A stretch of DNA of 64,000 nucleotides from the IMG/VR virus record IMGVR_UViG_3300028591_000128, positions 1 through 64,000 of that record; one strand, 5' to 3'. The notes below the pieces were generated by a model. That model searched no databases, was not told the DNA's origin, and saw only the letters and a program-made list of their open reading frames with translations. The DNA is from a virus (Duplodnaviria > Caudoviricetes). This document shows, piece by piece, positions 18,209 through 53,300 of the stretch; within the stretch, counting starts at the first letter, position 1, and each line of letters begins with the position of its first letter. The position numbers and the translations under genes are program-made.

Positions 18209-21200
18209 TTATGCTGTAAATATAAAGTCCATGCTTGATGTTGTATCATTATAACGTAATGTACAAGATTTACTTGTAGTAGTTTTACTACCAACTGCAA
18301 GATCTCCACCGACTCTAAAATGAGGAGATTGTTGCGTTGATGAATCAACATAAAAATATGTTCCCGTTTGAGTCGAACCATTATGAGCAACAAACCATTT
18401 ATGACTATAAGAAGATGGATTGCACCCTAACCACCATACATTATCTCCTGTACCAGAAGTAGAATTAGCTGCTCCACCCATAACAAAAGAACAATATCCA
18501 CCATTACCTCTATTAATACGAATACCTTCTGCCCATGAAGAGTTAGCTGAAGTTATACTGAGACATCCCGTCATCGTATCTCCAGTTTTACTTACTTTAC
18601 CACTGATATCTTGATGAGCAGTAAGTACTTTAGTTCCACCAGAATATAAACATCCGTCTGTTCCAACATATGCGGTATCTTGTGAATATGTCTGCGGATT
18701 AGCTGCTTGACTTGTCGCACCGATTAAAAATATCTTAGATGAAGTATCTGTAGATCCGGCAGTGTTTTTAGTGTCAGTATCTGTGAATTTTGCACCAGAT
18801 GGTACAGAAGTCGCTATTGTATAACCGCTAGACTTCATTCCTCCTGTTGTGCCATTAGTGATTACTACTTGACCCGATGTAGGTGTTGCAGTAAATTGCC
18901 CTATAGCATTCCAAGATGTATAAGTACCATTATTTTTTCCACGAAAATACAGATTCGGAAAATCACCCATACCCATGAACAATTCTCCATTATAATTGGT
19001 ACCACCACCCCAAGTAGCTGACAGTAACATACAACCATAACCACTTGTAGACAATCCTATATTAGAATTATTTGCCCTTGAGCAAAATGCTTTAACAGTT
19101 CCTGCCGAAGTCTGGCATACATAAGCCGTTCCTTCTTTATAAGTCGTGTCTTGATTCAATAATGTTGCACTATCTGCGTTTCCAGTCAAATTACCGCTAA
19201 ATGTACTTGCAACTGTTCCAGTGATAGTCATTGTACCAGAACCATTTATACTTATCTTCTGTGCAGTAGATCCACTATACGGAACAAGCTGTATTCCGGT
19301 AGCACCATTTAATCCCTTTACACCTAATGTACCTGCTACATTTATATCACCAATGGCTACATCATCACCTATGTTATTGTATGTATTATTAGCAGTATTG
19401 ATAGCACCAGTCAATGTCCCACCGGATTTCTTCAAATAGGTAGTATTTATAGCATTCCCATCGCTATCTTGTGTTGCTTTAGTTGCACTTCCTGCACTTG
19501 TCGCATAATTAACTGATTTATTTGCATCTGCTGTGTTATCTACATTTCCAAGACCTACATCGGATTTTGTGGGCTTATTGCTAGAATCAAAAATCTTTCT
19601 CCAACTTCCCCAAGTTGTTCCATTACTAGATCTTACATATAACGGTGTAGTCCTCTGATCTCCAGCATTAGCAGGGCCTGCGAGTTCCCATGTATTATAT
19701 GCATCCTCATTCCAACCTCTTACATGTAGCAAACTCCAAAAATTACCATCAGGCATGGATCTATTACTGAAAAAGAAATTAGATTGATATCGCATACAAT
19801 TTGTAGTTATATCTACGCTTCTAACATCATGCACGTGTATTCCACAAGTAGGTAACGTGCTTTGAGTAGAAGATCCGAGTTGTAATGTACCAGTTAACGT
19901 ACCACCTGCAAGTTTAAGATATGTAGACTTGATTGTATTCCCATCACTGTCTTGGGTTGCTTTTGTAGCAGAAGTTGCTGTTGATGCATTACCAGATAAA
20001 TTACCATAGAAACTTCCAGTTGCCTTAATATTTGGTGCTATAAAATATTCTCCACCTTGAGTACCATTTAGAGTAAGTGAAGCAGGTGATTGAACTGAAT
20101 CATAGTCAGTCCATGTCAGTGATCCACTCTGACTTCCATCTGCATTCTTGAATACTATTTTTGGGTTACTGTCTGCAAATGTACTGGATGCGACAGTTGG
20201 TTTCTGTATAGTAATATAATTATTTGTTTGAATATGATCTACTGTTATCTGATTTCCGTACCACCCACCGTAAGTTGGAACTTCGGTGTAATAAGCACCT
20301 GATGGACTATCAACTATCGCAATGGTTTGTGGCGTAAACGATGTATATATGGTTGCTGAAGTACAATCTGCATCAAATCTGAGATATACATCATCGCTAT
20401 TACTTATAACTTTATATACACCACTTAATCCTCTATGAGAATATACTTGACCATAGCCCCACCACTTAGTACCTCGTGAACCCGTGTACAATACATGACA
20501 TCCGACTCGATTATTTCCGCCAGTACGAATTTGAATTACTTCAATATGTGAATTCCAATTTGCAGTAGATACTTTTACATACCAAACTGTATCAGCAGTT
20601 GGTTGCGCTAATTGTGTGCTCGAAACGTATCTGTCATAATAAATATGATACCCGTCAACTTTATCAGCGTTATCGGCTGTACCTTGTAGATTTCCAATAA
20701 ACTTAGGTGCGGTTACACTCACTGGAAAACTTGATGTGCCATCTGTATTTAATAGCACTGCTTCTCTAGCAACAGCATTAGATGTATTATATTGGCGAAC
20801 TACTGTTTTTTCACAATTAGTCATTCCTCCGTCATCACCAGTTGCAATCTCTAGAACAGTATCTGACTCACCTGTCCCTGTAACTCTGATCCAACCAACA
20901 TCATAAAATGTTGCAGGATTGGATATAGCAATACCATCTTTGAATATTTCAGTAGTACCTGCCGCAAGACTTGTTACTTTCCCGGCAGATAGAGGCATTG
21001 ACACATTATTGTAAGCAATTCTTCCAGTAATCGTATCCCCCGCCTTATTCACAGGAGTATACCCTAAAGCAGTAGTAACATTAGAAGAAGTAAGCTCACT
21101 CCGAATAGTAGCAGAAGATTTGTTCTCAACATTATTGAGTGACATAGCGGTTTTCATGTTTGCAACAGTTGATTTTCTAAAATATCCGTCACTGTTTGCA

Positions 21201-24200
21201 TATATGATGAAACTATCTGAGGTAGGTGTTTCTGCACTACTACTTTGATTAAAATACTTTGCAAATATATAACCACTTGCAGTTCTTCTGGCTATTGTAT
21301 TATTTGATGCCGCAGTATCTGAAGCATAGCCATTTAATTTAGCGGAATCAGATGCAGTAGCTGCATTTCCGGAGATACTACCATTGATTGTGTTTAGGAA
21401 TCTAGCCGCTCCGGTCACAATGAGATTACCCACATTCGCTTCTGTTATACTCGCAGATCCTGTTGTAAGATAATTAGTGTCAAGATCATTTGTAGCAATA
21501 GCAGAAGAGGCAGAAACATTTGTGGTTGAAAGCGTTCCTGTTGAAGGATTGAATGTGAGGTTATTATTTTTCCTTGCTGTTTCCGTCCTCGTTGTATTAT
21601 CAGCAGTAGCAGAGAATAATACCTCATATGTAGCGTTTGTATTCGTTGCTGTTTGTGTTACTAAAGTGTCTGTATTATTATCACTCGGCATAGTAAATAT
21701 GTAGGATGTACCACCAGCAGTTATTGCATACTTACCGCCATGCGCAAGTGTGATCTGGTTAGTACCTGTAGATGTTGCAATCGAAGTTGCGTGAGTATGC
21801 CCACTTGTTGCATAAGCCGAGGATTCTGTATAAGCTGCGCTCTTTAATCCATGCACAGGAACGGATTGAGCAGATCCACCACTTGGTGTTACTGAGAATG
21901 CACCATTCGTAGATCCCTCTGCAAATGTGTAAGTTGTATTCGTGTTTGGATTCGCTGGCATCTTAATAGAATCTACAGCAAGTCCGGTTACATGCCCTTT
22001 AGCGTCTCGTTTAATCGTTACTCCGGTAACAAGAGATGTGGAATTCCATGTTGCTGCTGTGGTACTACTTGCATCTGCGTCCAACTGTGATCCGGTGTTT
22101 TCAGCAGGAGTGTAGTGATTACCTACAGCCGTAACTTTAGTATCTGTGTTTACGGTATATGTCGGTGCAGCCCAACTACCATCTTCCCTAAGAAATTTGG
22201 TAGACTGAGATTGACTTGATACTGCACTTCCTTTAGGTGCGACACCGGCAGAAGATGCGCTCACCTTTGGTATATTGGCAGTTACAGAAGCGGTATCACT
22301 ACCAGCTCTCGTAAGAGTCATCTTGACCGGACTATTTGCCGAAGCCGTTGTGTCATCCGCAAATGATGCAGTATTTACATACCTATCTGTGTTTGTTACC
22401 GTCTCTGTGGCACTTGCAATTCCAGTTACATGACCATATTCATCCAATGTAATATCTTGGACATATGTACGACCAGAGTTATTAACGCTTGCCTGACTAC
22501 TTGTATCTGCGTGTGATATACTAACTTTATTTCCCGTAGCATTAAAGGATACAGTAGTAGCACTTCCGTTCACAAAATCAATAGCACCGGAAGAAATGCC
22601 TGTGCCAAGCTTCTCTGTACCATTGATCTTAATATTTCTCCATGTATCTTCCACATCATCGCCAGAAGGTATATATACCCATTGATATGCAGAATCTATT
22701 TTGGTACTGACAAACATATCTCCGACTTTAGCAGCTTGAGAAGCATACGTGCCAGCCGTGATTACCTTGTAAGTCCAACCCTCATTAGAAGATGAAGCCG
22801 TTGGGAGAGAAGTAATAGTACCATTTGTACCAAGCGTTCCCTTAAATATCATTGGCTCCGGTAAGTTATCTATCGCAGTTGAAATTGCAGATGCTACCGC
22901 TCCAGATGTAACCAAGTCACCACTTCCACTCGTTACAGATGTGGTAAAGTTTTTCGCAGCCGCCGTACCAAGACCAGTTACTGCAATAGTCACCTTATCA
23001 TTGGTTGCATCAGGTGTTAGGCTGATATTACTACCGGCAGATAACTCCAATGTATCCGTCTTTCCATCAGCAGCGATAGTCGTAGTACCAACCTTTACGT
23101 TGCTGAAAGCGTTTTGGTTAACTTCCGCACCGCTTGCTATTCCAGCAAGTTTACTCTTTTCCGTAGAAGTGTAGTTGTTATCCGTATGAACGTAACTTGC
23201 ATCAGATACATAGTCACTGTCATTTGTTAAGTCACTCGTTTTGGTAGGAACAGTAACATTGACTGCCTTGTTTGCATCCGGAGTAAGTGCAGTACCATTC
23301 ACCTTTACTGATTCAATAACATTAACATCTGCACCAGCTTCAACGCCATCTAATTTCTTTTTGTCATTTGCAGACATCAGACCTGATTTTGATTGTGTCG
23401 CATCAGCAATACTCGGAGTAACCTTTACTGTCTGTTTAGATCCACCGCTTGGAGTTACTGAAAACCCATTAGTACCATTTTCAAATGTGTATGTGGTATT
23501 ATTGTCCGGTACCGTAGCGGTAGACAATACATTACCATTCTTGTCTTTCAGCTGCAGAACATGCCCATCAGACGGATTCTGACCAAGGCTTGTCGCATAG
23601 GTTGTCCGAATGTCATCTCCATCTTCATCGGCAGTTGCGGAATCTGCATGGGTAGCATTCGGGACAGTTATACTGATGGGCGAACCAGAAGACGGTGTTA
23701 ACACTATCTTCCCAGTTGCAGGATCTGCTGAAAGCGTATAAGTAGTATCATTGTCGGGAATAGTAATAGTAGTGTCATTTCCATCACTGTCATGTAAAGT
23801 AAATTTATGTTTATCGGTTGAATCCTGAATAAGTGTATAGGTGGTATCTTTTGCAGAGAACACTACACGATCTGATACTGCTGTTGGAGTAAGTGTTATG
23901 TTGTCTCCTGCAACAATACTGAGTGTGTCTGTTTTACTATCTGCGGATAGGGTGGTGACAGTCTGTCCTTGAGTTACTTCGACAGCACTGAATGCAAACT
24001 GATTGACTTCAGCGCCACTTGCCACACCATCCAGCTTTGTCTTATCTGACGCTGACATTAAACCAGACGCAGACTGTGTAGCATCCGAAATAACGATGTC
24101 AACATCATAGGTGTTTCCATCGTTATCGGTTATAGTTATTATGTTTGGGTTTGACGGATTACTGGAAATAGTGATATCTTTTTGACTGAATGTGAAAGTA

Positions 24201-24331
24201 TCACCATTTCTTTTTGTTGCAGTAAATGTATTTCCGCTACGGCTTATACTCGCTATAGCGGAATTATCCTGTACATAGTATTCTGAACCATCTGGGAGTT
24301 GTAGTTCACTTAGCTTTTGCATATCCGGCAT
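18209..24331 (-). CDS. Long tail fibre protein (2040 aa)
   Basis: Repeats GLMSASDKTKLDG, GAEVNQ.AFS, ATKATQDSDGN.I, VGLGNVDNTAD; T/S/G-rich. Confidence 0.85.
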   Translation of the reverse strand: MPDMQKLSELQLPDGSEYYVQDNSAIASISRSGNTFTATKRNGDTFTFSQKDITISSNPSNPNIITITDNDGNTYDVDIVISDATQSASGLMSASDKTKLDGVASGAEVNQFAFSAVEVTQGQTVTTLSADSKTDTLSIVAGDNITLTPTAVSDRVVFSAKDTTYTLIQDSTDKHKFTLHDSDGNDTTITIPDNDTTYTLSADPATGKIVLTPSSGSPISITVPNATHADSATADEDGDDIRTTYATSLGQNPSDGHVLQLKDKNGNVLSTATVPDNNTTYTFENGTNGFSVTPSGGSKQTVKVTPSIADATQSKSGLMSANDKKKLDGVEAGADVNVIESVKVNGTALTPDANKAVNVTVPTKTSDLTNDSDYVSDASYVHTDNNYTSTEKSKLAGIASGAEVNQNAFSNVKVGTTTIAADGKTDTLELSAGSNISLTPDATNDKVTIAVTGLGTAAAKNFTTSVTSGSGDLVTSGAVASAISTAIDNLPEPMIFKGTLGTNGTITSLPTASSSNEGWTYKVITAGTYASQAAKVGDMFVSTKIDSAYQWVYIPSGDDVEDTWRNIKINGTEKLGTGISSGAIDFVNGSATTVSFNATGNKVSISHADTSSQASVNNSGRTYVQDITLDEYGHVTGIASATETVTNTDRYVNTASFADDTTASANSPVKMTLTRAGSDTASVTANIPKVSASSAGVAPKGSAVSSQSQSTKFLREDGSWAAPTYTVNTDTKVTAVGNHYTPAENTGSQLDADASSTTAATWNSTSLVTGVTIKRDAKGHVTGLAVDSIKMPANPNTNTTYTFAEGSTNGAFSVTPSGGSAQSVPVHGLKSAAYTESSAYATSGHTHATSIATSTGTNQITLAHGGKYAITAGGTSYIFTMPSDNNTDTLVTQTATNTNATYEVLFSATADNTTRTETARKNNNLTFNPSTGTLSTTNVSASSAIATNDLDTNYLTTGSASITEANVGNLIVTGAARFLNTINGSISGNAATASDSAKLNGYASDTAASNNTIARRTASGYIFAKYFNQSSSAETPTSDSFIIYANSDGYFRKSTVANMKTAMSLNNVENKSSATIRSELTSSNVTTALGYTPVNKAGDTITGRIAYNNVSMPLSAGKVTSLAAGTTEIFKDGIAISNPATFYDVGWIRVTGTGESDTVLEIATGDDGGMTNCEKTVVRQYNTSNAVAREAVLLNTDGTSSFPVSVTAPKFIGNLQGTADNADKVDGYHIYYDRYVSSTQLAQPTADTVWYVKVSTANWNSHIEVIQIRTGGNNRVGCHVLYTGSRGTKWWGYGQVYSHRGLSGVYKVISNSDDVYLRFDADCTSATIYTSFTPQTIAIVDSPSGAYYTEVPTYGGWYGNQITVDHIQTNNYITIQKPTVASSTFADSNPKIVFKNADGSQSGSLTWTDYDSVQSPASLTLNGTQGGEYFIAPNIKATGSFYGNLSGNASTATSATKATQDSDGNTIKSTYLKLAGGTLTGTLQLGSSTQSTLPTCGIHVHDVRSVDITTNCMRYQSNFFFSNRSMPDGNFWSLLHVRGWNEDAYNTWELAGPANAGDQRTTPLYVRSSNGTTWGSWRKIFDSSNKPTKSDVGLGNVDNTADANKSVNYATSAGSATKATQDSDGNAINTTYLKKSGGTLTGAINTANNTYNNIGDDVAIGDINVAGTLGVKGLNGATGIQLVPYSGSTAQKISINGSGTMTITGTVASTFSGNLTGNADSATLLNQDTTYKEGTAYVCQTSAGTVKAFCSRANNSNIGLSTSGYGCMLLSATWGGGTNYNGELFMGMGDFPNLYFRGKNNGTYTSWNAIGQFTATPTSGQVVITNGTTGGMKSSGYTIATSVPSGAKFTDTDTKNTAGSTDTSSKIFLIGATSQAANPQTYSQDTAYVGTDGCLYSGGTKVLTAHQDISGKVSKTGDTMTGCLSITSANSSWAEGIRINRGNGGYCSFVMGGAANSTSGTGDNVWWLGCNPSSYSHKWFVAHNGSTQTGTYFYVDSSTQQSPHFRVGGDLAVGSKTTTSKSCTLRYNDTTSSMDFIFTA

Positions 24332-26512: not shown

Positions 26513-27685
26513 TCATTCACCTGTAACAGTAGATGCAAATACGAAACCTACTGCCTTTCTACCATTTCCCGGAAGTGTATATTCAATTCTCTTGAAAGTA
26601 ATTCCAGTAGTTGGGTCAGAATATTCACCACCAAGTATTCTCACTGCACCAATAATATCATCAATCGGATGCTTGATACTTGGAGTAGCATAAACTCTTG
26701 TAGTTTTCTTTAAAGCTGCAGATGTTTTTTCATCATTAGATGCAGATGGAGTTACAGGCTCAGTGATAGGTTCAGGATCCGTTGTAGGTGTCGGATCAGT
26801 TGTAGGTGTCGAATTCGACTCAGTATCTGCTGATGCATCATCAACTGTATCCGTGTCACTATCAGCATCTACGTCACTATCAGCATCTACGTCACTAGCA
26901 TCATTAGCATCTGTGTCGGTATCGGTGTCGGAATCTACATCAGTGTCAACATCAGCATCGCTATCTGTATCACTATCACTGTCAGCATCATTAGCAATAG
27001 CAATTACAGTATATATTCCGGCTTCATCGGGTCCAGAAATTGCGTAATTCTCAGTATCAACAGCTCCGTCTGGAATAGAGCCTTTGAATGAACCACCAGT
27101 GACTGTTACTATGGTTGCCGAATCGTCTTCTTTAGATATTGCAGAAGTTTCAGAACGGATTACACCGGAAGTTACTACTGCTATACCTCGTTTATGCACA
27201 TCAATTGCATGGGCATCACCAGCATCAATCAACCCAGAGGAAACTTCTACCTTACTATTTGCAGTTGCAATAGTGTAACCTTCTACATCAATTACAGGAC
27301 CATCACCTGTGGTGGAAGAAATGTATGCACCAGAAATATTAAGTTTCGCTTTCTTTTGAACTTTGACAACCGTTCCTGTACCAGTTACAGTAAGATCATT
27401 TGCTAATGTAAGAACAGTATCAGCCCCATCTATACATATACCAGTTGGTACAGCACTTGTGATGAAACCATTTGAGATAGTATAATTACCACCTGTAATG
27501 AGAATACCATTCTCTGCGGAAATAGATATTGTATTAGAATTTAAGTCAATATGTAGTTTTTTGTCAGATGAAAATTCTGTAGAAGATGTAATAGAAATGG
27601 AATCAATTAACTGGATACGGTCATTATCATTTGCGGAAGCAATCGCTTCAAGCAGTTCTTGAAGTGTACTTACTGTTGTATTCAT
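26513..27685 (-). CDS. Beta-helix-like protein with D-S/D-T and P-T low-complexity linker
   Basis: LQELLEAI...IDLN.NTI...ISGA/VTGGSF repeats; DADSDSDTDSD tract. Confidence 0.6.
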   Translation of the reverse strand: MNTTVSTLQELLEAIASANDNDRIQLIDSISITSSTEFSSDKKLHIDLNSNTISISAENGILITGGNYTISNGFITSAVPTGICIDGADTVLTLANDLTVTGTGTVVKVQKKAKLNISGAYISSTTGDGPVIDVEGYTIATANSKVEVSSGLIDAGDAHAIDVHKRGIAVVTSGVIRSETSAISKEDDSATIVTVTGGSFKGSIPDGAVDTENYAISGPDEAGIYTVIAIANDADSDSDTDSDADVDTDVDSDTDTDTDANDASDVDADSDVDADSDTDTVDDASADTESNSTPTTDPTPTTDPEPITEPVTPSASNDEKTSAALKKTTRVYATPSIKHPIDDIIGAVRILGGEYSDPTTGITFKRIEYTLPGNGRKAVGFVFASTVTGE

Positions 27686-30038: not shown

Positions 30039-30396
30039 GTTTGATGCCTATGTAATGTTACATGTCGTAAATTCAAATCCTTACTATTGACAAATGTATT
30101 TTATGTTTGACACCTGTGCAATTTCATAGTCTACCAAAACGGATACGCCTAAACCGTACGCTAGTTTGACACCTATGCAATTTCATAGTATATCAAAACC
30201 TTTGATGATTGAATAGCGTCCAACCTTAAGTTTGACACCTGTGCAATTTAACATGTTATCAAAACTCTGATAGTAGATCAATTTCCATTGTCCACGTTTG
30301 ACACCTATGTAAATTCACAGTATACCAAACTGTATAAGAACTCAGCTGCAAGTATCCTATGTTTGATACCTATGTAATTTCGCACTGTATCAAAAC
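30039..30396 (-). CRISPR. CRISPR array A: 6 repeats, 5 spacers
   Basis: 35-36-nt repeats (plus strand GTTTGACACCTRTGYAATTT....TATCAAAAC) starting at 30039 (degenerate), 30105, 30164, 30230, 30296, 30361; spacers 30, 23, 30, 30, 30 nt. Confidence 0.92.
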
Positions 30397-30510
30397 CTCA
30401 AATCACACATGTATTCAGTTTTGATAACATATTTTACAAAGGCTTGGTGAGTGCGTTACGACTAAATCTGAGTAAAGTCTACCTCACCATAAGGTTGTCA
30501 AATCAACCCC
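30397..30510 (-). ncRNA. tracrRNA-like module A plus leader ending ATTTGAG
   Basis: 5' hairpin GGTTG-ATTTGA-CAACC, GGTGAG/CTCACC stem, anti-repeat GCCTTTGTAA..ATGTTATCAAAAC. Confidence 0.8.
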
Positions 30511-30558
30511 ATATATAAATATTTAAATTTTAATTGTATGTAACAACATATTCTTCTG

Positions 30559-32031
30559 GTGAACTCTCCACCACCTATAGAGGCTGGTGGCTTCGTAAGA
30601 AGGTTGATATTTAAGTTTCCACCTAAAATTAGGCAATCCTTATTCTTACAGGCGTGTCCACTTCGCCGCTACCGTATAGGACTGTTAAATCCACAACGCT
30701 ACTTTTTCTTAAAATATTCAACGCACCATTGACATCTGCGTTAAGTAATATTCCGTCAGCAGTTTTGTACAACCCCCTGCGTACACGTGTTCCGCTGAAT
30801 TCATATGACTGCGGATTATCTGCATTGTATACGGGGATGTTATCATGATCCCAGAATGATGCTTGTGAAGTATAGCTTTCTTCTTGCTTGACAAAAATAA
30901 TGCTGTTCAGTTCACAAAGATATTCCAGTTTGGAACGCAGTTTACCATATGGAATATTGACAAAGTTCTGATTGTTACGCTTGTCCATACTAGAATTACG
31001 TTGAAATGTTTCATTATATCCGATTACAAGCGTTCCAATATCATGAGCAATACAATAATTAGTAATTTTTCTTGCAGTTTTGCTCATATAATCGTTGACT
31101 GTTCTGTTTCTTTTATCAGCTAAGATTTTCTGACGATTTGTTGTTCTTCTTTTATCACCCTGTCTGTATTTGATACATTGCAGCCGTGCATTTTCTTTGT
31201 TGAACCATTGATTGATAGATTTAAGTCTTCTCCCATCAATAATGAATGATCTGCCAGTGCTTGATACTGCGGTTACAAGATTATTCACACCTAAATCCAA
31301 AGCAAGTGCATTGTTTTTATTAAGATTTCTTTGAGTACATTCAGTTTCGTAAGTATACTGAATTTCAAAGAACCTTGCTTCCGATTTTGGAATGATTCTG
31401 ATTTCCTTGATATGCTTGTCAGCAAGTATCGGCGGCATTTTGATTTCAACAGGCTTGTGTGTTTTCCTGAATGCATTGGAATATGGAAGAATCAGTTTGT
31501 TCCCATTCAATCGGACAAATCCTATCACGAGTGTTGTGAATCCGTCTTTAGGAAGATACTGTGGTAATTTACAGTCTCTAAAAGAATATTTTCCTTTTTT
31601 CGCAAGTTTCAGCAGTCCGAAAAAACTTTTGAACGATCCGTCTACTTCTTTCAAAATCTGCTGTGCCATATTAGAGTTGAGCATTTTGTAATTTGGACTG
31701 TCTTTCAGCAATGCATAATTCTTTTCGTATTTCAGATATTCTCCTTCTGTGAAGTAATACTGACGGACATTGTAAATTGCTTCATTAGCAAGGTTTTTTG
31801 CTGTGTGGCACAATTCTCTCAAAATGCCGTATTCTTCTTTTGACAGATGTTTCACTTTTTGCTTTACCGTTAGATACATAGTTTTCCTCCTTCCTTTTAG
31901 ATTTAGGACATTTTCCATGTATCTATTACAACATACATTTTACTGATTGTCAATAGTTTCAGTAAAAACAATCTGCATTCATCCACCACTTTTGCTTTGC
32001 TTAGAAGTGGTGGTATTCTGCCGAAAATTGG
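30559..32031 (-). mobile_element. IS200/IS605-family (IS1341-like, tnpB-only) insertion sequence
   Basis: Left-end hairpin CCACCACTT...AAGTGGTGG near TTTAT; right-end hairpin CCACCA..TGGTGG ending GTTCAC; removal restores ATCAGAAGAAT, also seen upstream of module B. Confidence 0.8.
30629..31879 (-). CDS. tnpB: RNA-guided endonuclease TnpB
   Basis: Start MYLTVKQ after AGGAGG; RuvC-I LALDLGVNN, QEESYTS (rearranged RuvC-II Glu), RuvC-III NADVNGALNI. Confidence 0.92.
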   Translation of the reverse strand: MYLTVKQKVKHLSKEEYGILRELCHTAKNLANEAIYNVRQYYFTEGEYLKYEKNYALLKDSPNYKMLNSNMAQQILKEVDGSFKSFFGLLKLAKKGKYSFRDCKLPQYLPKDGFTTLVIGFVRLNGNKLILPYSNAFRKTHKPVEIKMPPILADKHIKEIRIIPKSEARFFEIQYTYETECTQRNLNKNNALALDLGVNNLVTAVSSTGRSFIIDGRRLKSINQWFNKENARLQCIKYRQGDKRRTTNRQKILADKRNRTVNDYMSKTARKITNYCIAHDIGTLVIGYNETFQRNSSMDKRNNQNFVNIPYGKLRSKLEYLCELNSIIFVKQEESYTSQASFWDHDNIPVYNADNPQSYEFSGTRVRRGLYKTADGILLNADVNGALNILRKSSVVDLTVLYGSGEVDTPVRIRIA

Positions 32032-32057
32032 ATAAAGTGTAGCACACTCTGTTTTCT

Positions 32058-32799
32058 TTTTGATACCTATGTAATTCCATACCTAAACAAAACATTATTC
32101 CAAGCCAATTAAATCATCCTCTCATTTGACACCTATGTAATTTAATCATCAATCAAAACTTCTGATAAATATGCAGTTGGTGGTCATGATTTGATACCTG
32201 TGTAATTTCATAGTTTATCAAAACTATAACGTATTACCATTGAGTTTGACTATGTTTGATACCTATATAACTTTGCAGTCTGTCAAAACCGGTATCTTAC
32301 CTAAGCCGTTTTCCACAGGTTTGATGCCTATGTAAACTCACAGTCTAACAAAACCAAGATGTTCCTGTCGATGCCATCAAGGAAGTTTGACATCAGTGTA
32401 ATTTCATAGCCCAACAAAACTGATAAGCAAATAAGACGAAAATGCCGCTCAGAGTTTGACACCTATGTAATTTCACAGTCCAACAAAATCCTCAGACAAA
32501 TACCTGTTCGACACCTGTGTAATTTCATCGTCTACCAAAACTCCACAATGATTGACTTGAAATACCCCTTCGTTTGACACCTGTGTAACTTCATGGTTCA
32601 ACAAACCGAACCGCTATCCAAATTACGCTTAGTTTGACACCCGTGTAATTTCACAGTTCATCAAAACAACATATGCATGGGAAATGGAGCCGCCAACGTT
32701 TGACACCTGTGTAATTTCACAGTTCAACAAAACGAATATGCGCTGGAACAGTTCTATCAGAAAGTTTGACACCCGTGTAATTTCACAGTCCAACAAAAC
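32058..32799 (-). CRISPR. CRISPR array B: 12 repeats, 11 spacers
   Basis: Repeats (plus strand consensus GTTTGACACCTGTGTAATTTCACAGTYCAACAAAAC) at 32058, 32124, 32189, 32254, 32319, 32385, 32454, 32506, 32572, 32632, 32698, 32764; spacers 30, 29, 29, 29, 30, 33, 16, 30, 25, 30, 30 nt. Confidence 0.95.
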
Positions 32800-32910
32800 C
32801 TCAAATCACACGTATTCAGTTTTGACAGAGCATATTTACAAAGGCTTGGTGAGTGTGTTATAGATTGGATGTTCAATCATACCTCACCTTAAGGCCGTCA
32901 AATCGGCCCT
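32800..32910 (-). ncRNA. tracrRNA-like module B plus leader ending ATTTGAG
   Basis: 5' hairpin GGCCG-ATTTGA-CGGCC, GGTGAG/CTCACC stem, anti-repeat GCCTTTGTAAAT..CTGTCAAAAC. Confidence 0.8.
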
Positions 32911-32976
32911 GTATATTAAATTTTATATTTGAATTTAACAGATTCTTCTGATTTTCATACACCTCCAGGGCCAGTG

Positions 32977-33125
32977 GTTTGATGCTTATGCTATCCATAG
33001 TTTCAACATTTGACACCTATGCAATCATGATAGTTGAATCATGTAGGATTGCAAGAGCTTAGTGAGTGTGTTACAGACAATGCTGAGACCATCCTGCCTC
33101 ACTTTACGGCTGTCAAATCAGCCGG
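32977..33125 (-). ncRNA. tracrRNA-like module C with fused repeat end and one degenerate repeat
   Basis: GGCTG-ATTTGA-CAGCC hairpin; followed by ATTGCATAGGTGTCAAAT (ends 33008) and a degenerate repeat at 32977-33007. Confidence 0.7.
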
Positions 33126-33147
33126 TTAGTATAATAACAATTCTGCC

Positions 33148-33274
33148 GCTTGATATCTATGTAATTATCTGTATTCCATCAATAACTTTGATATCTACTT
33201 AGACATAGACTCGGTGAGTGCGTTATAAGCAAGAAAAATCTGCTATGCAACACCATAAGGCTGTCAAATCAACC
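33148..33274 (-). ncRNA. tracrRNA-like module D (overlaps the cas12f stop codon) with one degenerate repeat
   Basis: GGTTG-ATTTGA-CAGCC hairpin; anti-repeat TCTATGT complementary to ACATAGA in the repeat at 33148-33186. Confidence 0.65.
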
Positions 33275-34603
33275 AATTACCGTCATATTTTTAGCCTTAT
33301 TATAGGCATGACTTATCGTTTTACCGCAATGAGGACAAGTGAATGATACTTCCTGTGTCCACTCGAATACCTTCGGAATGACTTCTTCTGTACAGAATAC
33401 TTCTCCACATGAACTACATACATTCCGGACTGTCCGAAGAACATCAGTCTTTTTATCTGTCTTATCAGCCATCTTACTTGTGGTTACAACAATACCCTCA
33501 CGTTCTGCCTTATAGGTAATGAACTGCACCAACTGATAATAAGACCAATTCCGGAGCAATACCGGGTAATCATCAAGATCAGACTTCGTTACGTCTTCTA
33601 CAACGATAGCTGATACTTTATTCTCCTTTGCAAACTCTACAACCATTTTACTAAGATTATGGTTATATGTCTGCACATAATTCTTCTCGTAAGATTTATG
33701 TGTTTCAAGTTTTGCCAACTTCTTTCCACGACCATGCCCACCATTGGAATACTTTAAAGCTCTCTGAAGATTCTCAAAGTGGATCTGAATGTCCTTGCGT
33801 TTTGCTACAAGATCATTCTTTATTGATCCACCAATCTCATGTTCATCATCATCTGTAGAAAGTGCGGCAACAAGACATTTATCATATCCAAGAGCAAGTC
33901 CCATGATCTTACCATGTTCAGGTATATATTCTTCTGCATCCTTCTCAATCTTAACGGAAAGATTTAAAATTATCTTACCTTTGTTCGTGATTTGAATCGT
34001 GCTACCACAAACCTTATAATGTTCTGGATCGGTTACAATAGATTCCAAAAGTGATGGAAGGAACTTATCCGGACTCTTATTCTTACCTGCACCAAGATAC
34101 AGCTTGAAATGGATTCCGTTTACAAACTTAAAGAAATAGGCATTTACTGTCTTTTCCGTTCCATCATCTGTAGTGTATGTATCATCACCAGTATAAATAG
34201 TAATGAATCTGCTTGGAACCATAAGTGGGAAATCTCTTTTGTAAAATGGTAGATTCCGCTCACCCTTTGCAAGTCCATTCCTCAATGCTATGGAGAAATC
34301 CTGCTTTACTTTCATACCACAGTTACCAGCCATACCCAAACCCTTTGCCTGTTTCATATCATATATGGCGGTATTTGTGTTCCGGAAGATCATCTTCATC
34401 TCTTCCTTGAAGTTCGGATCGTTGAAATTCTTATCATACTTATAATACAGGCATCCAACCTGTGACATATAAGTATTCAAGATACAATACTGATTGTAGA
34501 TCCCATCACGAAGGTACTGATATACCCTATCCCGTTCTTCTTTATCACCTACCGGGAATAACTGAATCTTCTTCGTTGTGATTGTAGTTGTTTTCTTCTG
34601 CAT
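33269..34603 (-). CDS. cas12f: Cas12f1-like (type V-F) effector, predicted nuclease-dead
   Basis: Family motifs YLRD..YNQY, NGL.KGER....YKRDFPL, GGHGRGKKL, TYNH.LS..VV.FA, LRNWSYYQL...I.YKA.REGI and CxxC/CxxC; RuvC-I reads GLALG (normally GVDLG) and RuvC-III reads SHAYNKAKN (normally NADYNAARN). Confidence 0.88.
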   Translation of the reverse strand: MQKKTTTITTKKIQLFPVGDKEERDRVYQYLRDGIYNQYCILNTYMSQVGCLYYKYDKNFNDPNFKEEMKMIFRNTNTAIYDMKQAKGLGMAGNCGMKVKQDFSIALRNGLAKGERNLPFYKRDFPLMVPSRFITIYTGDDTYTTDDGTEKTVNAYFFKFVNGIHFKLYLGAGKNKSPDKFLPSLLESIVTDPEHYKVCGSTIQITNKGKIILNLSVKIEKDAEEYIPEHGKIMGLALGYDKCLVAALSTDDDEHEIGGSIKNDLVAKRKDIQIHFENLQRALKYSNGGHGRGKKLAKLETHKSYEKNYVQTYNHNLSKMVVEFAKENKVSAIVVEDVTKSDLDDYPVLLRNWSYYQLVQFITYKAEREGIVVTTSKMADKTDKKTDVLRTVRNVCSSCGEVFCTEEVIPKVFEWTQEVSFTCPHCGKTISHAYNKAKNMTVIG

Positions 34604-47326: not shown

Positions 47327-50300
47327 TTATGATTGTGATCCATTTCGGATTCTAAGACCTGTAATTGTTACATCTTCCATATTGGATACAGTAAGGAAGA
47401 ACTCCCAATTTGTATTGTTTTTAGGTAAGAAATCAGTATTGTTATGGTTCAACTCCGGTGTAGTTGCTAATAGTGTGTTGTCTTTATAGAATTTTAGCAC
47501 AAGTTTACCATTAGCACCTTCATCAGATTCAATCTTGAATGTAGAATTTGCAAAATAAGTTAAACCTTCTACACCTAAACTAACAAATCCTGCGTGTTCT
47601 ACCGTTGGGTTAAATGTATACCAATCTGCACTAAATCCCCATTGCCCGTAATCTTCATCGGCAGTTATGAACCCAATGTACTGACTAGCATCACCTATAA
47701 GATTTCCAATGATCCAAGAATCTGCCCAATCACGGTGATACATTGTGCAATCAGTTACATCAAATTCTACTACTGTACCGGGAACGAACAAGGTTGCAGG
47801 TACACATATGTTTTTGCCATCAGCATCCTGTATACGAATACCTGTACCTTGCACCCACTCACCTGTAGCAGGTGTTGTAGTGTTATCTGCAAATGTCAAG
47901 TTTGCAGACTGTTCAGTATCAACAAGACTAGATGTAAAATCCCAATTGTATGTCCAACTTGTTGATGTAGGTACAAATGTACCGAAAGTTGAAGTTCTCG
48001 GTGGTTTGTTTACAAGTATAGGTGTAGTTACATTCTGACCACCTATAGAATCAGTACGTGTTCCATTTGTTCCGAAGCAATATGCATCGTATTCTTCCCC
48101 TGCCTGATCATAATAATAAGGATAATTTGCTTGATCAATATGGACTACTTGCAAACCTGTTGTATCCCAAGTACCTCCACTCCAATTTGGAAATCTGTAA
48201 CCTTGCTCAAATGCATGGTATGTTTCATTACCAACATCATCTAAGTTAGATGCACACATTCTAGTAAAGTCAGAAGAATAATTAATAAATATCCAATGAT
48301 CTAATGATGAGAAGTCTAGTACACCTGGCATCGGACGATCATGACCTGAATAATTCTCTACATCATTAGGTTTGTAGAACATTTCAGAAAAATCTGTAAC
48401 ATCATGCACATCCCAAGAAGATAAATCTACATTTATGAGATAATGTAAATTACTAAACATATTGGACAATGATGCATCATCAATATACCAATTACGTGCA
48501 ATAATTGTTTGGAACTTCGGACTATCATTTATAATATCTGAACCAGTAAATCCGAATATTTCAGATAAACTTGTATGGTCTCCAAAACGTATGGTCATGT
48601 TGTTCCATACAAGTTTATTTATATCTGAGTTTTGGAAGAAATCTGTGTAACATCCTTCGCCATGACTTAAACTCATTCCATGACTATCAGGTAGTATCAG
48701 CACAGAGTGATCACTTACTGATCCGAATGAAGCACTTTCAAACATACTTGATAGGTCAGTAGATTCTCCAATGTTCCAAGAACTCATGTCAAATATGTAT
48801 CCATCATATTCTTGCGAATATGTACTAGGAAGAATTGCGTTTTTGAACATTGAATCACATGTGAAGTAACCGTTATCATTAATCCATCCATCAAAATCAG
48901 TGCTAGAGTAATTATGTAGATCACAACCTTCGAACATTCCAGAAACAGATTCTATAGAATTTATGCTCCAGTTACTAAAAATTCCTGATGGGACTTTACG
49001 ATGTTCACCAGTATATCCATAACTGAACATGAATTCAAAATTGGTTACTCTACTTACATCCCAGTTTTCTAATCCATGAACCTGTAATAATAAATCAGCC
49101 AGTGATTGCGAGCTAGTTGCAAACATGTACGACATATCTGTAACACTACTTGTATTCCAGGATGAAGTGTGTAAATCATTATAGAACTCTTTAGTGGATT
49201 CAAACATATGGGACATATTCGTAACATGACTTACATCCCAAGATGATACATCCCCATATACAACTGCACCACGGAACATGTTCTCCATAGTGGTGACACT
49301 GGAGGTATCAAGATAAGATATATCTACATAAGTATCACAATCTTCAAACATACTCTCCATAGTTGTTACATTAGATGTATCCCAATGTAGCTCCGCTTGT
49401 GACCCCTTGTATTCTTTGAATGTACTATTCATGTACATAACATTTGAAGTATCTAGATGTTCAGGAATAGGTATATCCGAACCCTCAAATGCATAGTTCA
49501 AATTTACAAGTGAATCTAGTTTCAAGTTGGATAAATCATCACCATAGAAATATCCTGTGTAATCATATTGGAATATTCCACTCATGGTAGTTACATTTGC
49601 TGTATCCCATTCCCTGATACCGTATATGCAATGTATGTGGTCCATACTCGCAAAGGTATTGGATAGATTTGTTATGTTCTGAGTACTCTCCATATCAATA
49701 CCCAGGTATTTACATGGGTTATCAGCAAACAGATTCTCTAATGATGTGAGATTATACGCATCCCAATTTCGGAATGAAATAGTTTCTGTACCATTTATTG
49801 CTGCAAGTATGTCCTTGAAATTCTGCAAGTTAGTAAATTGCAACGGTGTATCACAATAATAAAGCCCATCGTCATAGTACACGTAAGTAGTAGGGTCAGT
49901 TGTATCTAATGATTGAGCATGCATTCTGAATTCTTCAGCAGTTTCACCAATGGACTGGGGCTCTTCGTAGTAGTAAGACTCACTATTTTCAGGTAAGTGA
50001 TACTCCAGTACAGCTGTATCATAACCTGTTTCAAGTGGTAAGAACCTATAAGCACTACTAGACGCAGATCTTAATTGATTGATACCACTGGAACTTAATG
50101 TGACGAATCCAGAAGGTGTAGCAGGTGTAAATGTTCCAAATCCAGAACCAGCTTTCGGTTCAGCAATACCTTTACCATATGGATTAAATGCGTAATATGG
50201 GTAATCAAACTCCCCAGATTCATACTGAGATAATCCAGTCCTATCCCAAGTACCATTCCAATTTGGGAATCTATAGGTGTTCTCACAAGGTTTTTCGTTG

Positions 50301-53300
50301 AACCAACAGCAAGGTACAGGATAGCCATTACCATAATAGTCCACATCATCCTCAGTAGCATCCGGATCTGAACAATGTAGCACGGATCCGCACATCTCAT
50401 AGAAGTCTACACCACTAGAAATATCCCAATCATCCAATGATGAGTAATCAATGATACCAGGAGATGGACTAGCCTCATCAGGTTCTAGAGCTTCTAATCT
50501 ACTAAACATTTGCCGGAAGTTAGTTATGTGTGATACATCCCATCCAGATAAATCTATTGCACATAACTTACGCCAACGTGTGAAGAAATTAGATAAATCT
50601 GTTATAGATGGATCAAATGTCCAGTTTTTAGCTTCAAAGTAGTATATATGATTATCTGCAAAGAATGCTTTTATCTTATTCAATGTAGATACACTGTCAA
50701 CATGTATGTTATTCAGCACCACTTTAGGTACGCTACATAGATCCATTGCATGTGAATAATATGTTAAATTGCTGAAATTAAATGTTGGCAATTTAATATA
50801 GAAGTTATCAGGATGTTCTACATTTAATGGAACTGCATAATATCCAGTGTCTCCTACATAAACATCCTCTGAATATGCTGGATGTATATCATCATCTTCA
50901 TAGCGTGAATAATGGTAGTAAATAGGTTTAGATGTAAATCCGTGAAACATGTGTTCTACATCTGTCACATTCCGTACATCCCATTCAGAAAGATCTAATG
51001 GTAAACAAATACCTCTAGCATCTGCAAACATGCTATTCATATCTTGTGCAGATGAACTTACTTTCATAGAGGAGAAATATCCAGTCTCATATTCAGATGT
51101 TGGACTGACCCATGCAGATAATGAATATGCACCTCCAGACCCATATGCTGATATACTATGTGTATCTGTATGAGTATCATAATCATCTCGTACATATACA
51201 CTCTGTTTACCTAGAACACCCTCAAGCATGTGGCTGAAGTTTACACCACCAGAACAATCAAGGTTCATCAATGCAGCACTAGCTGATGGTAACTGATAAA
51301 ACGCATAAGAAAAATTGGTTACACTACTTACATCCCAGTTTATCGCATAACCTGTATATGCGTGTGGAACATAACCATTTGTCAACGCAAACGTGTAAAA
51401 ACCATATGCAGATTCATAATCCAATTGAGATAATTTGTCAGTTTGATAGAACATGCCCTCCATATTTTCAAGATTGGGCGTACAATCATAGTCATCTGCA
51501 TAGAAGTTTATGAAAATGGAAGAACCATCATATCCAGTTATACTACTAAACATGTAGGATGTATCTGTAAGATATGGAAATCCACCATTGGAATTAGCAT
51601 AAAGTGTTCCAGGACTCGATCCAGCATTTATATCTGCACCATCAAACATATGTGACATACTAACTGCGTATTTAGCAAAATCATATTCGTAATCATATAG
51701 CTGTACATAAGCTATAGTAGAATGATAGAACATGTAAGATGCATCTACTTCACGATTGAATGTAAACCATCCGGAATTGATACTATCTGCATCAATGTTT
51801 GCAAGCATATATGTTGCATCTATAGGATATGCTGATTCATGAGTAGAAGATCCAAAAATGAACTTCGCACCATTCACCAAATAATATCCCGAATGAGTAT
51901 ATATACCAGGGTTAGCACCATCAAACATATGACTTACATTTTCAACATTTGGTAATTCCACTGGATCAGATCCATATATATTAGAGAATTCACCATTAAA
52001 TTCGGAAAACATATATGATGCGTCTGTTACGTTTGCCAGTACATCCATGAATGCGGAATGACCCTCTGGGATTTCGTATACGCTTCCATTGAAGATTCCA
52101 TCAAAAGAATCTACACTACCTTGGAACATCCCTTTGGTAGATGTTACATTTACTGCGGAATCTATTCCAAATAACTGCCATGTAGTATGTACATGATATG
52201 CAGGATCAGCATTACGTCTAGTAAGTTCAGTAGATTCTCTAGATGCAAATAAGTAATCCATATTAGTTACTCTAGAATAATCCCAATCCAATAAATCTAC
52301 AAACAATTCATTTGGATTATCTTGCGGAGATAAACAAGTGTAAAATGCATTCATGACCGTATGGATATTTTCATCATCTAAGAATCCGATTGGAGTTGCC
52401 TCACAAGTGTAGAATATCTGATCTGATAATGTTGTAGTTCCTGAGTGCTCCCAATCCCCACTTACTGCGTATATAGGATATTCGTCCATTGATGTAGGAA
52501 TTGTAGATGTTGGATATTGCTTAATTTCTGAAGCATCAATGTAATCAGTAGTATTGGTGAAGTCTCCACCTATGTAGTACCCAGAGTAATATCCAGTTTC
52601 CGGATTGTATAATTGAACGATGCGTCTGAGCTTAGGAGTATAGTATCCTGAAGATGGTAATAATTCTGCGAAGTCATCAGCATATTCATTTGGAAGATAT
52701 GTGTAATCAACTCCATTAAAATGCCATTTAGTCATATCCTGTGTAATCATTGTAAGATTATAGAACGGATCTGTAGTTCTTGTGCTATAGTTTACTTCAC
52801 CTTCAGCAGTCCACCAAAATATTGTTTCTGTGTCATCTTCATTTGTAACAAAATCAAGATACAGATTCTCTTCCGTACTAAATACAGTAGGGTCAACAAG
52901 ATAACCTCTTTTCTCATCTGCCTGTTCAAAATAAACAGAACGACTACGAGAAGGAAGTTTCTCCAAGAATATTTTATTTAAAGCTCCAGAACTTGTTGCT
53001 CCTGTTGTAAGATAGAAATCATGATATGCAGGAGGCTCTGGAACAGGTTCAATGGAACCTTTTAGGAATTCGTTGATGCTTCCTATCTGTATCTTCCATA
53101 CAACTTGTACAACTTGATTTGTTCCAACTTTTAGTATGTTCTCTTTGAGGATCTTCCTGTTTTCTGGAACAGTCATATCCCAGTTAGATTCATTTGGAGG
53201 ACCGATTCTATATCCTGCAAGAAGTCCATTTTCACTACCAAGTTGCCAAGTCTTTTTCGACCATAGACCTGCTTCTGTAATGAACACATAATCTTTACCT

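Follow-up and report, generated by a model that had tools for sequence, protein, structure and literature searches.

The 64,000-nt stretch of DNA analyzed here (the window) comprises the first 64 kb of a 106,310-bp Caudoviricetes record in IMG/VR (IMGVR_UViG_3300028591_000128), and between its positions 30,039 and 34,603 it encodes a nuclease-dead relative of the compact CRISPR effector Cas12f1, together with four tracr-like RNA scaffolds and two CRISPR arrays. We consider it rather likely, from sequence comparisons, that this locus specifies a repressor, carried by the phage and programmed by multiple RNA guides, that binds DNA and has a host abortive infection (Abi) system among its targets. 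The case is built on the state of the catalytic site across a deep clade, on covariation in the RNA scaffolds, and on two spacers that point to one and the same operon.

The effector gene (33269..34603, minus strand) encodes 444 amino acids, and the open reading frame (ORF) is matched above cutoff by the Pfam family Cas12f1-like_TNB (PF07282) as well as by the NCBIfam guided_TnpB/Cas12f2 model. Searching the PDB with phmmer returns 9nzp (RhCas12f, E 1.7e-49) and 8hr5 (CnCas12f1, E 3e-40), followed by 8j12 (AsCas12f, 1e-18) and 9n9c (Fta dCas12f, 7e-17). When the AlphaFold2 model of the protein (predicted local distance difference test score, 83.4) is submitted to Foldseek, the top matches are all Cas12f structures, ahead of TnpB, Cas12k, and Cas12m. 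In HMMER alignments to Cas12f1 proteins, the RuvC-I motif GLALG stands opposite GVDLG and the RuvC-III motif SHAYNKAKN opposite NADYNAARN; both catalytic aspartates are therefore replaced by alanine (Ala237 and Ala433). The RuvC-II glutamate, Glu336 (IVVED), is retained, so that the D-E-D triad is reduced to one residue. The four zinc-ribbon cysteines (C396, C399, C423, and C426, in the arrangement CxxC...CxxC) are invariant across the dead clade to which the protein belongs. A preliminary description of this DNA had proposed a full-length Cas12f1 protein with an intact zinc finger, two Asp-to-Ala replacements, and a surviving RuvC-II glutamate; the family, PDB-sequence, and fold matches, the invariant cysteines, and the alignment to solved Cas12f1 proteins bear out each of these points. 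Judged by its sequence, the protein is a full-length derivative of the Cas12f1 family and not a functional nuclease member of it.

This inactivation is a property of a lineage. The 120 best homologue clusters were collected, and the 114 of these with at least 380 aa were sorted by RuvC motif. Both aspartates are absent from 63, reaching down to ~37% identity, with Ala, Ser, or Val in RuvC-I and Ser, Ala, Arg, Gly, or Tyr in RuvC-III; the canonical triad is retained in 51, at ~36–40% identity. In a maximum-likelihood tree the dead group, which has a long stem, is set apart by a branch with 100% support. In a second tree, to which Bacillota and Bacteroidota relatives fetched from genomes were added, active Cas12f1 proteins from Lachnospiraceae and phages form the sister group of the dead clade, inside Bacillota Cas12f1, while the 365-aa dCas12f proteins associated with sigma-E, including that of Flagellimonas taeanensis, fall in a distant Bacteroidota group. 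The dead clade standing apart from the Bacteroidota dCas12f proteins, its inactivation was therefore independent of theirs. Among the window gene and its counterparts in two sibling phages, the ratio of nonsynonymous to synonymous substitution rates (dN/dS) is 0.039, 0.027, and 0.021, at dS values of 0.34–0.59, and ORFs are full-length and unbroken throughout the deep clade. Neutral decay with frameshifted homologues, which the preliminary description had set against its own proposal of exaptation, is not seen. Exaptation over decay is instead strongly supported on comparative grounds, because the clade is monophyletic and diversified with a double loss of aspartate, because dN/dS is low (0.02–0.04), and because the RNA scaffolds covary.

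Two observations on the relatives may be recorded at this point. Catalytically intact Cas12f1 relatives (36–39% identity) are common in large viral contigs of IMG/VR (L090–L139, 90–186 kb), and the two active phage loci examined (L090 and L120) have short CRISPR arrays of 4–5 repeats. Within the dead clade, the deep-branching member L202 (P0058; L202:5001-7670) has no downstream array, and a 470-aa Replic_Relax-like gene begins 4 nt after its effector, an arrangement that hints at another kind of partner, on an element that is conjugative or can be mobilised.

Every part of the dead-Cas12f locus lies on the minus strand, and in the order of transcription one meets the effector ORF (34603..33269), scaffolds A to C, a 12-repeat array, a TnpB ORF, scaffold D, and a 6-repeat array. 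Scaffold A (33209..33274) overlaps the 3' end of the effector ORF; after it come one degenerate repeat and ~24 nt of guide-like sequence, reaching to ~33127. In scaffold B (33057..33123), an anti-repeat is looped in cis to the 3' half of a repeat (to ~33007); as read from the sequence, a degenerate repeat and a guide-like stretch follow the scaffold, to ~32940. Scaffold C (32844..32908) continues through an anti-repeat and a leader, ending in ATTTGAG, down to 32800, and thus opens onto CRISPR array 2 (32058..32799, with its leader-proximal end at 32799), which consists of 12 heterogeneous 36-nt repeats and 11 spacers. Scaffold D (30442..30508) leads by way of its own anti-repeat and leader, down to 30397, into CRISPR array 1 (30039..30396), with six repeats, the last of them degenerate, and five spacers. 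The scaffold element of ~65 nt is accordingly present in four copies, two of which (C and D) lead into arrays; the arrays share a geometry of 36-nt repeats (GTTTT…AAAC) and 30-nt spacers, a spacing of ~66 nt, and have 11 + 5 = 16 internal spacers between them. The same-strand tracr-like RNAs and 16 spacers of the preliminary description are thereby accounted for. Its two arrays are likewise present, with the correction that they constitute two modules of scaffold plus array, the TnpB gene between them belonging to an unrelated insertion sequence (IS). A scaffold and mini-array are found downstream of the effector gene in every well-sampled dead-clade locus, and one clade member, L008, has four modules.

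An alignment of 16 scaffold copies, drawn from six loci, resolves three helices, with stem 3 nested inside stem 2. Hairpin 1 has a 6-nt loop of invariant length, stem 2 reads GGUGAG/CUCACC (GGCGAG/CUCGCU in L008), and the inner hairpin differs between copies. In these helices 94.6% of cells are paired and double compensatory changes are seen in 9 of 18 pairs, as compared with 36–48% paired in control registers slid by 1–3 columns, it being understood that the structure was derived from the same sequences that were used for the covariation test. The hairpin-1 loop is, furthermore, complementary to the last bases of the cognate repeat, and loop and repeat end covary in four variants: AUUUGA with UCAAAC (the window, its sibling phage L089, L002, L004, and L006), AUUCAG with CUGAAC (L008), ACUUGA with UCAAGC (L203), and ACUUUG with CAAAGC (L201). 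A pseudoknot between loop and repeat end is known from Cas12f and TnpB guide RNAs. A conserved AAAC:UUUG pseudoknot has been described for the Cas12p family, and the trans-activating CRISPR RNAs (tracrRNAs) of Cas12 systems generally form a pseudoknot with the 3' end of the repeat (10.1101/2025.01.20.633832).

Stem 2 is followed by a stretch that is complementary to the central part of the repeat, in the manner of an anti-repeat. As read from the sequences, this pairing extends over 12 consecutive positions in L002, 13–14 of 16 in L008, and ~9 of 11 in the window. In module B the duplex is a UGCAA:UUGCA variant, and the module would appear to be a natural single-guide form. No Rfam family matches the scaffolds. 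The scaffold 3' end (GUCAAAAC) together with the next ~19 nt was considered as a conserved built-in guide and dropped, the stretch not being conserved in L002, L004, or L008. In L008, tRNA-like 3' halves (GGTTCGATTCC motifs) lie between two scaffold-plus-array modules (L008:3840-4125).

The repeats of the arrays are unusually varied: none of 136 pairs is identical, mean identity being 79%. Conservation is seen at the 5' UUUG and in the 3' half, which pairs with the tracrRNA. The heptamer ATTTGAG directly precedes the first repeat of both arrays (32800–32806 and 30397–30403), and the same leader end is found in the dead-clade loci L002, L004, L008, and L201 as well as in the active phage relative L090; the leader is short in L002, L004, and L008. 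A similar leader-anchoring motif occurs in one group of type II-A arrays, and spacer acquisition by host machinery is possible. The arrays do turn over. Relative to L089, the window has four spacers in common (27–29 of 29–30 nt, with one short spacer at 15/16), and differences are seen in the four nearest the leader and in the majority of the rest; the common four have been kept across a dS of about 0.6.

Two of the spacers lead to a candidate target. Spacer 1 (32094..32123, minus strand) matches, at 26 of 30 positions, the gene for the 178-aa partner of an AbiLi-like ATPase, and spacer 2 (32355..32384, minus strand) matches the opposite strand of the same gene at 24 of 30; the respective 5' flanks are TTTTTG and CTTATA. 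Against G002, the rumen Lachnospiraceae metagenome-assembled genome (MAG) RUG11200, spacer 1 agrees in 25 of its first 26 nt, the first 13 perfectly. The L089 allele of spacer 2 agrees with the target in 25 of 30, one base better than the window allele. The target ORF, 537 nt in length, encodes a conserved protein with 1047 homologues at E ≤1e-10. It lies directly downstream, with a 4-nt overlap, of the gene for a 394-aa AAA_21 ATPase that is recognized by PADLOC as AbiLi (E 1.5e-41; AriA, 2e-16), and downstream of the pair are a helix-turn-helix gene and the N-terminus of a type I HsdR (a fragment). The two-gene operon recurs beside different chromosomal genes in four further copies from other samples, in all of which both protospacers and their flanks are conserved (23–26/30).

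Taken alone, the spacer 1 match is no more than moderately significant when all ~400 genomes searched are taken into account (E 1.6e-4 per genome). The spacer 2 match is an independent one, to the same short ORF. Among 3000 shuffled spacer sets scored within the ORF, none reached 25/29 (maximum 22) or a second-best score of 23/29 (maximum 20). The site 1 mismatch to G002 is a synonymous third-position change, and the site 2 differences lie in a segment that is variable among homologues; because of this, the real target is probably another, unfound allele of the 178-aa family. The suggestion of the preliminary description that the phage silences host defence genes thus gains direct, if limited, support, from 2 of 16 spacers that match one gene of an AbiL-like operon in rumen Lachnospiraceae. 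The spacer search that it had envisaged did yield these two matches in one ORF; the derivation of a protospacer-adjacent motif (PAM) from their two flanks did not succeed.

We would picture the system as follows. A stand-alone effector, descended from type V-F1 Cas12f1 and deprived of two of its three RuvC catalytic residues, is carried by a temperate-type rumen phage. Each of the four modules would be transcribed with a short tracrRNA comprising hairpin 1, stem 2 enclosing stem 3, and the anti-repeat, and the CRISPR RNA (crRNA) repeat would pair with it twice, through its 3' end with the hairpin-1 loop to form the pseudoknot and through its middle with the anti-repeat. The tracr:crRNA pairs would load the dead Cas12f, and the complex would then find PAM-flanked DNA matching its guides, at least 16 in number, and remain bound without cutting. 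Binding inside the Abi partner gene on both strands would block transcription, a natural multiplex form of CRISPR interference (CRISPRi) by which the phage or prophage probably shuts down, at least partly, the defence genes of its host or of rival elements. The comparisons establish the family of the protein, the loss of its catalytic residues, purifying selection, the architecture of the RNAs, the want of a conserved protein partner, and the matches between spacers and target. For transcription of the modules, for the loading of RNA, for binding in place of cleavage, and for repression we argue by analogy with what is known of Cas12f, Cas12m, TldR, and dCas12f, and an advantage to the phage is likewise supposed.

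Several points weigh against this picture. Only 2 of the 16 spacers have been matched to a target, neither perfectly, so that the allele of the actual host was missed; no clear PAM emerges from the protospacer flanks, TTTG and TATA. The arrays of L089 and L006, searched against 401 Lachnospiraceae genomes, gave matches at chance level. For the 178-aa protein, neither Pfam nor PADLOC gives a match, and the fold search of the PDB gives none that is significant. There are leads toward an AbiLii/TOPRIM-like partner, namely an N-terminal CEGxNE motif, weak Atlas leads to RloB/DUF4276, and weak fold rows for an OLD C-terminus; these are leads only, the RloB/TOPRIM link being weak, and Atlas otherwise gives the protein automatic names alone. 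Finally, where a defence gene is expressed constitutively, silencing that starts after infection may be too late to help, except in a lysogenic phage or if the system is induced.

How, then, do other explanations fare? The dead effector and its tracrRNAs might serve as a dominant-negative anti-CRISPR decoy, soaking up the crRNAs of a host V-F or repeat-compatible system or occupying the phage's own protospacers, and so shielding it from active Cas12f1 of the host. The active Cas12f1 proteins to which the clade is most closely related, in Lachnospiraceae and their phages, come with similar repeats and with leaders that likewise end in ATTTGAG, and there are four tracr copies for one protein, all of which would suit such a role, as would the precedent of a phage Cas9 with a dead RuvC domain that has been proposed as a decoy (PMC11656645). 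We nevertheless think it quite unlikely, given that the phage retains arrays of its own, in which four spacers are conserved across a dS of ~0.6, that the two matched spacers point to a host gene and not to the phage, and that the one candidate host-like genome examined yielded no V-F array with matching repeats. A targeting module that recruits a recombinase, a relaxase, RNA polymerase, or a host nuclease, in the service of guided integration, mobilisation, or activation, is also unlikely. The effector is the sole protein family common to the divergent loci within 6 kb, the record contains no sigma factor, and both matched sites lie in a coding region as opposed to an attachment site or promoter. 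What speaks for recruitment is that inactivated TnpB and Cas12f lineages do pair with sigma-E, relaxases, and tyrosine recombinases (PMC10691335; PMC13472631), that this phage encodes an integrase and L002 has one ~2 kb downstream, and that the L202 effector is followed directly by a Replic_Relax gene, without an array.

Residual catalysis must be considered as well, since rearranged RuvC sites exist in TnpB and Cas12 proteins (PMC10691335): the protein could still be a nuclease, a nickase, or an RNA-targeting enzyme by virtue of relocated catalytic residues or of a metal site completed by dimerization. Glu336 is mostly kept, an Asp at +4 of RuvC-I (GYD) is frequent in the clade, and many members have Asp or Glu at –2 of RuvC-III. 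These extra acidic positions are, however, not conserved, GYN, GYS, GYT, and GFN also occurring at the former and the window protein having Ser at the latter; the position of Glu336 itself is Asp, Gln, or Lys in 12 dead-clade members, and the clade alignment contains no clade-specific invariant acidic residue near the RuvC motifs. The two guides are of opposite sense, which argues against mRNA targeting in particular, and we regard retained enzymatic activity as very unlikely. Least credible of all is the view that a phage Cas12f1 system, active in the past, is here in decay and serves no function any longer. One could cite for it the heterogeneous repeats (0/136 identical, mean 79%), the IS insertion, and the lack of adaptation genes; set against these are a dN/dS of 0.02–0.04 with full-length, unbroken ORFs across the deep clade, compensatory changes that uphold both the RNA helices and the pseudoknot, and the fact that the conserved repeat positions are the very ones that pair with the tracrRNA. 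We give this explanation almost no credence, and return to RNA-guided repression as the reading that we favor.

The remaining spacer searches were unproductive. No spacer matches elsewhere in the 106-kb record (best 16/17 and 14/15 nt, at chance level), and neither array has a meaningful match among GenBank phages. Exact-pattern scans of IMG/VR with three spacers and of JGI metagenomes with one recovered solely copies of the phage's own arrays. For window array 1, as for the arrays of L089 and L006, comparison with the 401 Lachnospiraceae genomes gave chance-level E-values or matches to repeat or AT-rich parts; an rpsB start region, a LysR gene, and the start of znuA were not counted as targets on these grounds. 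A spacer of L089 (L089:8572-8601) does resemble a ribosome-binding site and start codon (GGAGGAAG…ATGAATGTAA) and matches one Lachnospiraceae rpsB start region at 26/30, with a chance-level E when all genomes are counted, and there are hints here that some guides are perhaps directed at translation-start regions. The L008 arrays have no match in their own MAG. A 24/30 match in L152 was set aside as chance expectation across 400 genomes, and a 20-nt repeat-like match on contig 79 of G002 proved not to be an array. No CRISPR array is found near L010, the active Cas12f1 relative in G002.

The TnpB gene that separates the two arrays (ORF 30629-31918, 429 aa; NCBIfam guided_TnpB, E 8.5e-56) retains the canonical Asp in both RuvC-I and RuvC-III. 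L088, a 40-kb sibling, is colinear with the window, TnpB included. In L089, a sibling phage of 253,527 bp (97% protein identity), the two scaffold-plus-array modules are adjacent and there is no TnpB. Alignment of the flanks places the insertion at ~32057 to 30556 (30556..32057 on the minus strand, borders approximate), with CCACCAC-type subterminal hairpins at both ends. TnpB is an ordinary IS200/IS605-type, TnpB-only insertion, outside the dead-Cas12f system. The element adjoins the final repeat of array 2, exactly 3' of the repeat end (…UCAAAA), L089 preserving the empty site, and this repeat end may have been the element's target-adjacent motif.

The record, whose completeness is estimated at 71%, is identified as a phage by its head maturation protease, major-head-like protein, endolysin, integrase, and virion or tail-fibre proteins, and the window neighbors of the dead-Cas12f gene are phage ORFans. 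The comparison that left the effector as the only shared family took in the window, L089, L002, L004, L006, and L008, and no transposase-like conserved neighbor was seen at the compared loci. Cas1 and Cas2 have no match anywhere in the 106-kb record (~71% complete) and Cas4 was not searched for, so that the earlier claim that cas1, cas2, and cas4 are missing holds for the first two. The absence of a Tn7 or sigma-factor partner is likewise upheld as regards sigma factors, with no Sigma70_r2 (sigma-70 region 2) match in the record, and as regards conserved neighbors; a search for the Tn7 protein TniQ gave no match, but its positive control likewise failed. A promoter and terminator scan gave the same counts as shuffled sequence, and no promoter is therefore claimed. 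Elsewhere in the window are two giant minus-strand ORFs (18209-24331 and 47327-54283; 2040 and 2318 aa) and a 390-aa ORF (26513-27685) that lacks a PHROG match and includes a long tract of low complexity, rich in Asp, Ser, and Thr, with repeats of the DSDTD type.

With type V-F1 Cas12f1 systems (9nzp, 8hr5, 8j12), the locus shares the protein family, fold, and size (~415–500 aa), the zinc-ribbon TNB domain, 36-nt repeats, and a tracrRNA and crRNA joined by a pseudoknot to the repeat 3' end. Here, in contrast, the RuvC-I and RuvC-III aspartates are replaced, Cas1 and Cas2 find no match, and several short tracr-plus-array modules with heterogeneous repeats are carried by phages or mobile elements. 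Adjacent cas1, cas2, and cas4 genes are common, if not universal, for Cas12f1. Large Cas12f branches with altered catalytic sites have been remarked upon before (PMC10691335). The dCas12f-sigmaE activators (Hoffmann et al., Nature 2026, PMC13472631) are also nuclease-dead Cas12f descendants turned to gene regulation, and these workers note a separate CRISPR-associated dCas12f cluster, illustrated by a Chitinophagaceae MAG, that is predicted to repress an efflux operon; the window clade differs in its separate origin inside Bacillota Cas12f1, its full length and zinc finger, its arrays, its lack of sigma-E, and its residence in phages.

Closer in presumed function are the TldR proteins (Wiegand et al., bioRxiv 10.1101/2023.11.30.569447), dead members of the TnpB family that may be phage-encoded and that repress a host gene sterically by means of a guide RNA, as when a prophage-encoded TldR represses host fliC; the corresponding function would be expected here. 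TldRs descend directly from TnpB, however, and have one fixed omega-RNA-like guide and a linked fliC, oppF, or csrA gene, whereas the present locus has a CRISPR-effector ancestor, 16 array spacers, a split tracr:crRNA, and no linked cargo gene, module B alone recalling the fused single guide of TldRs. Cas12m (V-M) and Cas12c (V-C), which have been described, with V-O and V-P, as binding-only effectors, are mobile-element type V effectors that silence by RNA-guided DNA binding, as we propose for the window protein. They belong to other Cas12 lineages (Foldseek rank 34 or lower), need no tracrRNA, and defend plasmids or hosts, as opposed to serving a phage against a host gene. The type I-F system with which phage ICP1 attacks the PLE island (PMC11656645) is likewise a phage CRISPR system with spacers to a host anti-phage element, but it is a complete, cleaving, and adapting class 1 system, where the present locus has one dead effector of class 2 and no module for adaptation. 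Full-text literature searches found no description of the Bacillota/phage clade, of its arrangement of several tracr copies, or of guides that a phage directs at an Abi operon.

Among dead RNA-guided proteins, TldR and dCas12f-sigmaE are already known to serve bacteria as regulators and Cas12m to serve plasmids as a weapon, and the clade described here would represent a second path, taken independently, by which Cas12f became a DNA binder. Its members are full-length natural dCas12f scaffolds of ~420–450 aa, presumably under selection for binding and of interest for compact tools for CRISPRi and activation if they bind DNA as predicted, with very short tracrRNAs (~65–90 nt) and a natural single-guide form as further assets, and their many tracr-plus-array modules exemplify intermediates that link a split tracr:crRNA to a fused guide RNA. 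As for the phages themselves, we would suggest, tentatively and with less assurance than we attach to the repressor reading of this one locus, that large phages of rumen and gut Lachnospiraceae maintain a dedicated dead Cas12f as a multiplex, heritable, and updatable silencer of Abi and other defence operons and perhaps of other host genes, with guides perhaps acquired through host type II-A-like adaptation at ATTTGAG. Should repression of the Abi operon prove true, it would constitute a new counter-defence strategy, in which immunity genes are silenced instead of their proteins being inhibited, and the first natural case of CRISPR interference by binding being turned by a virus against the immunity of its host.

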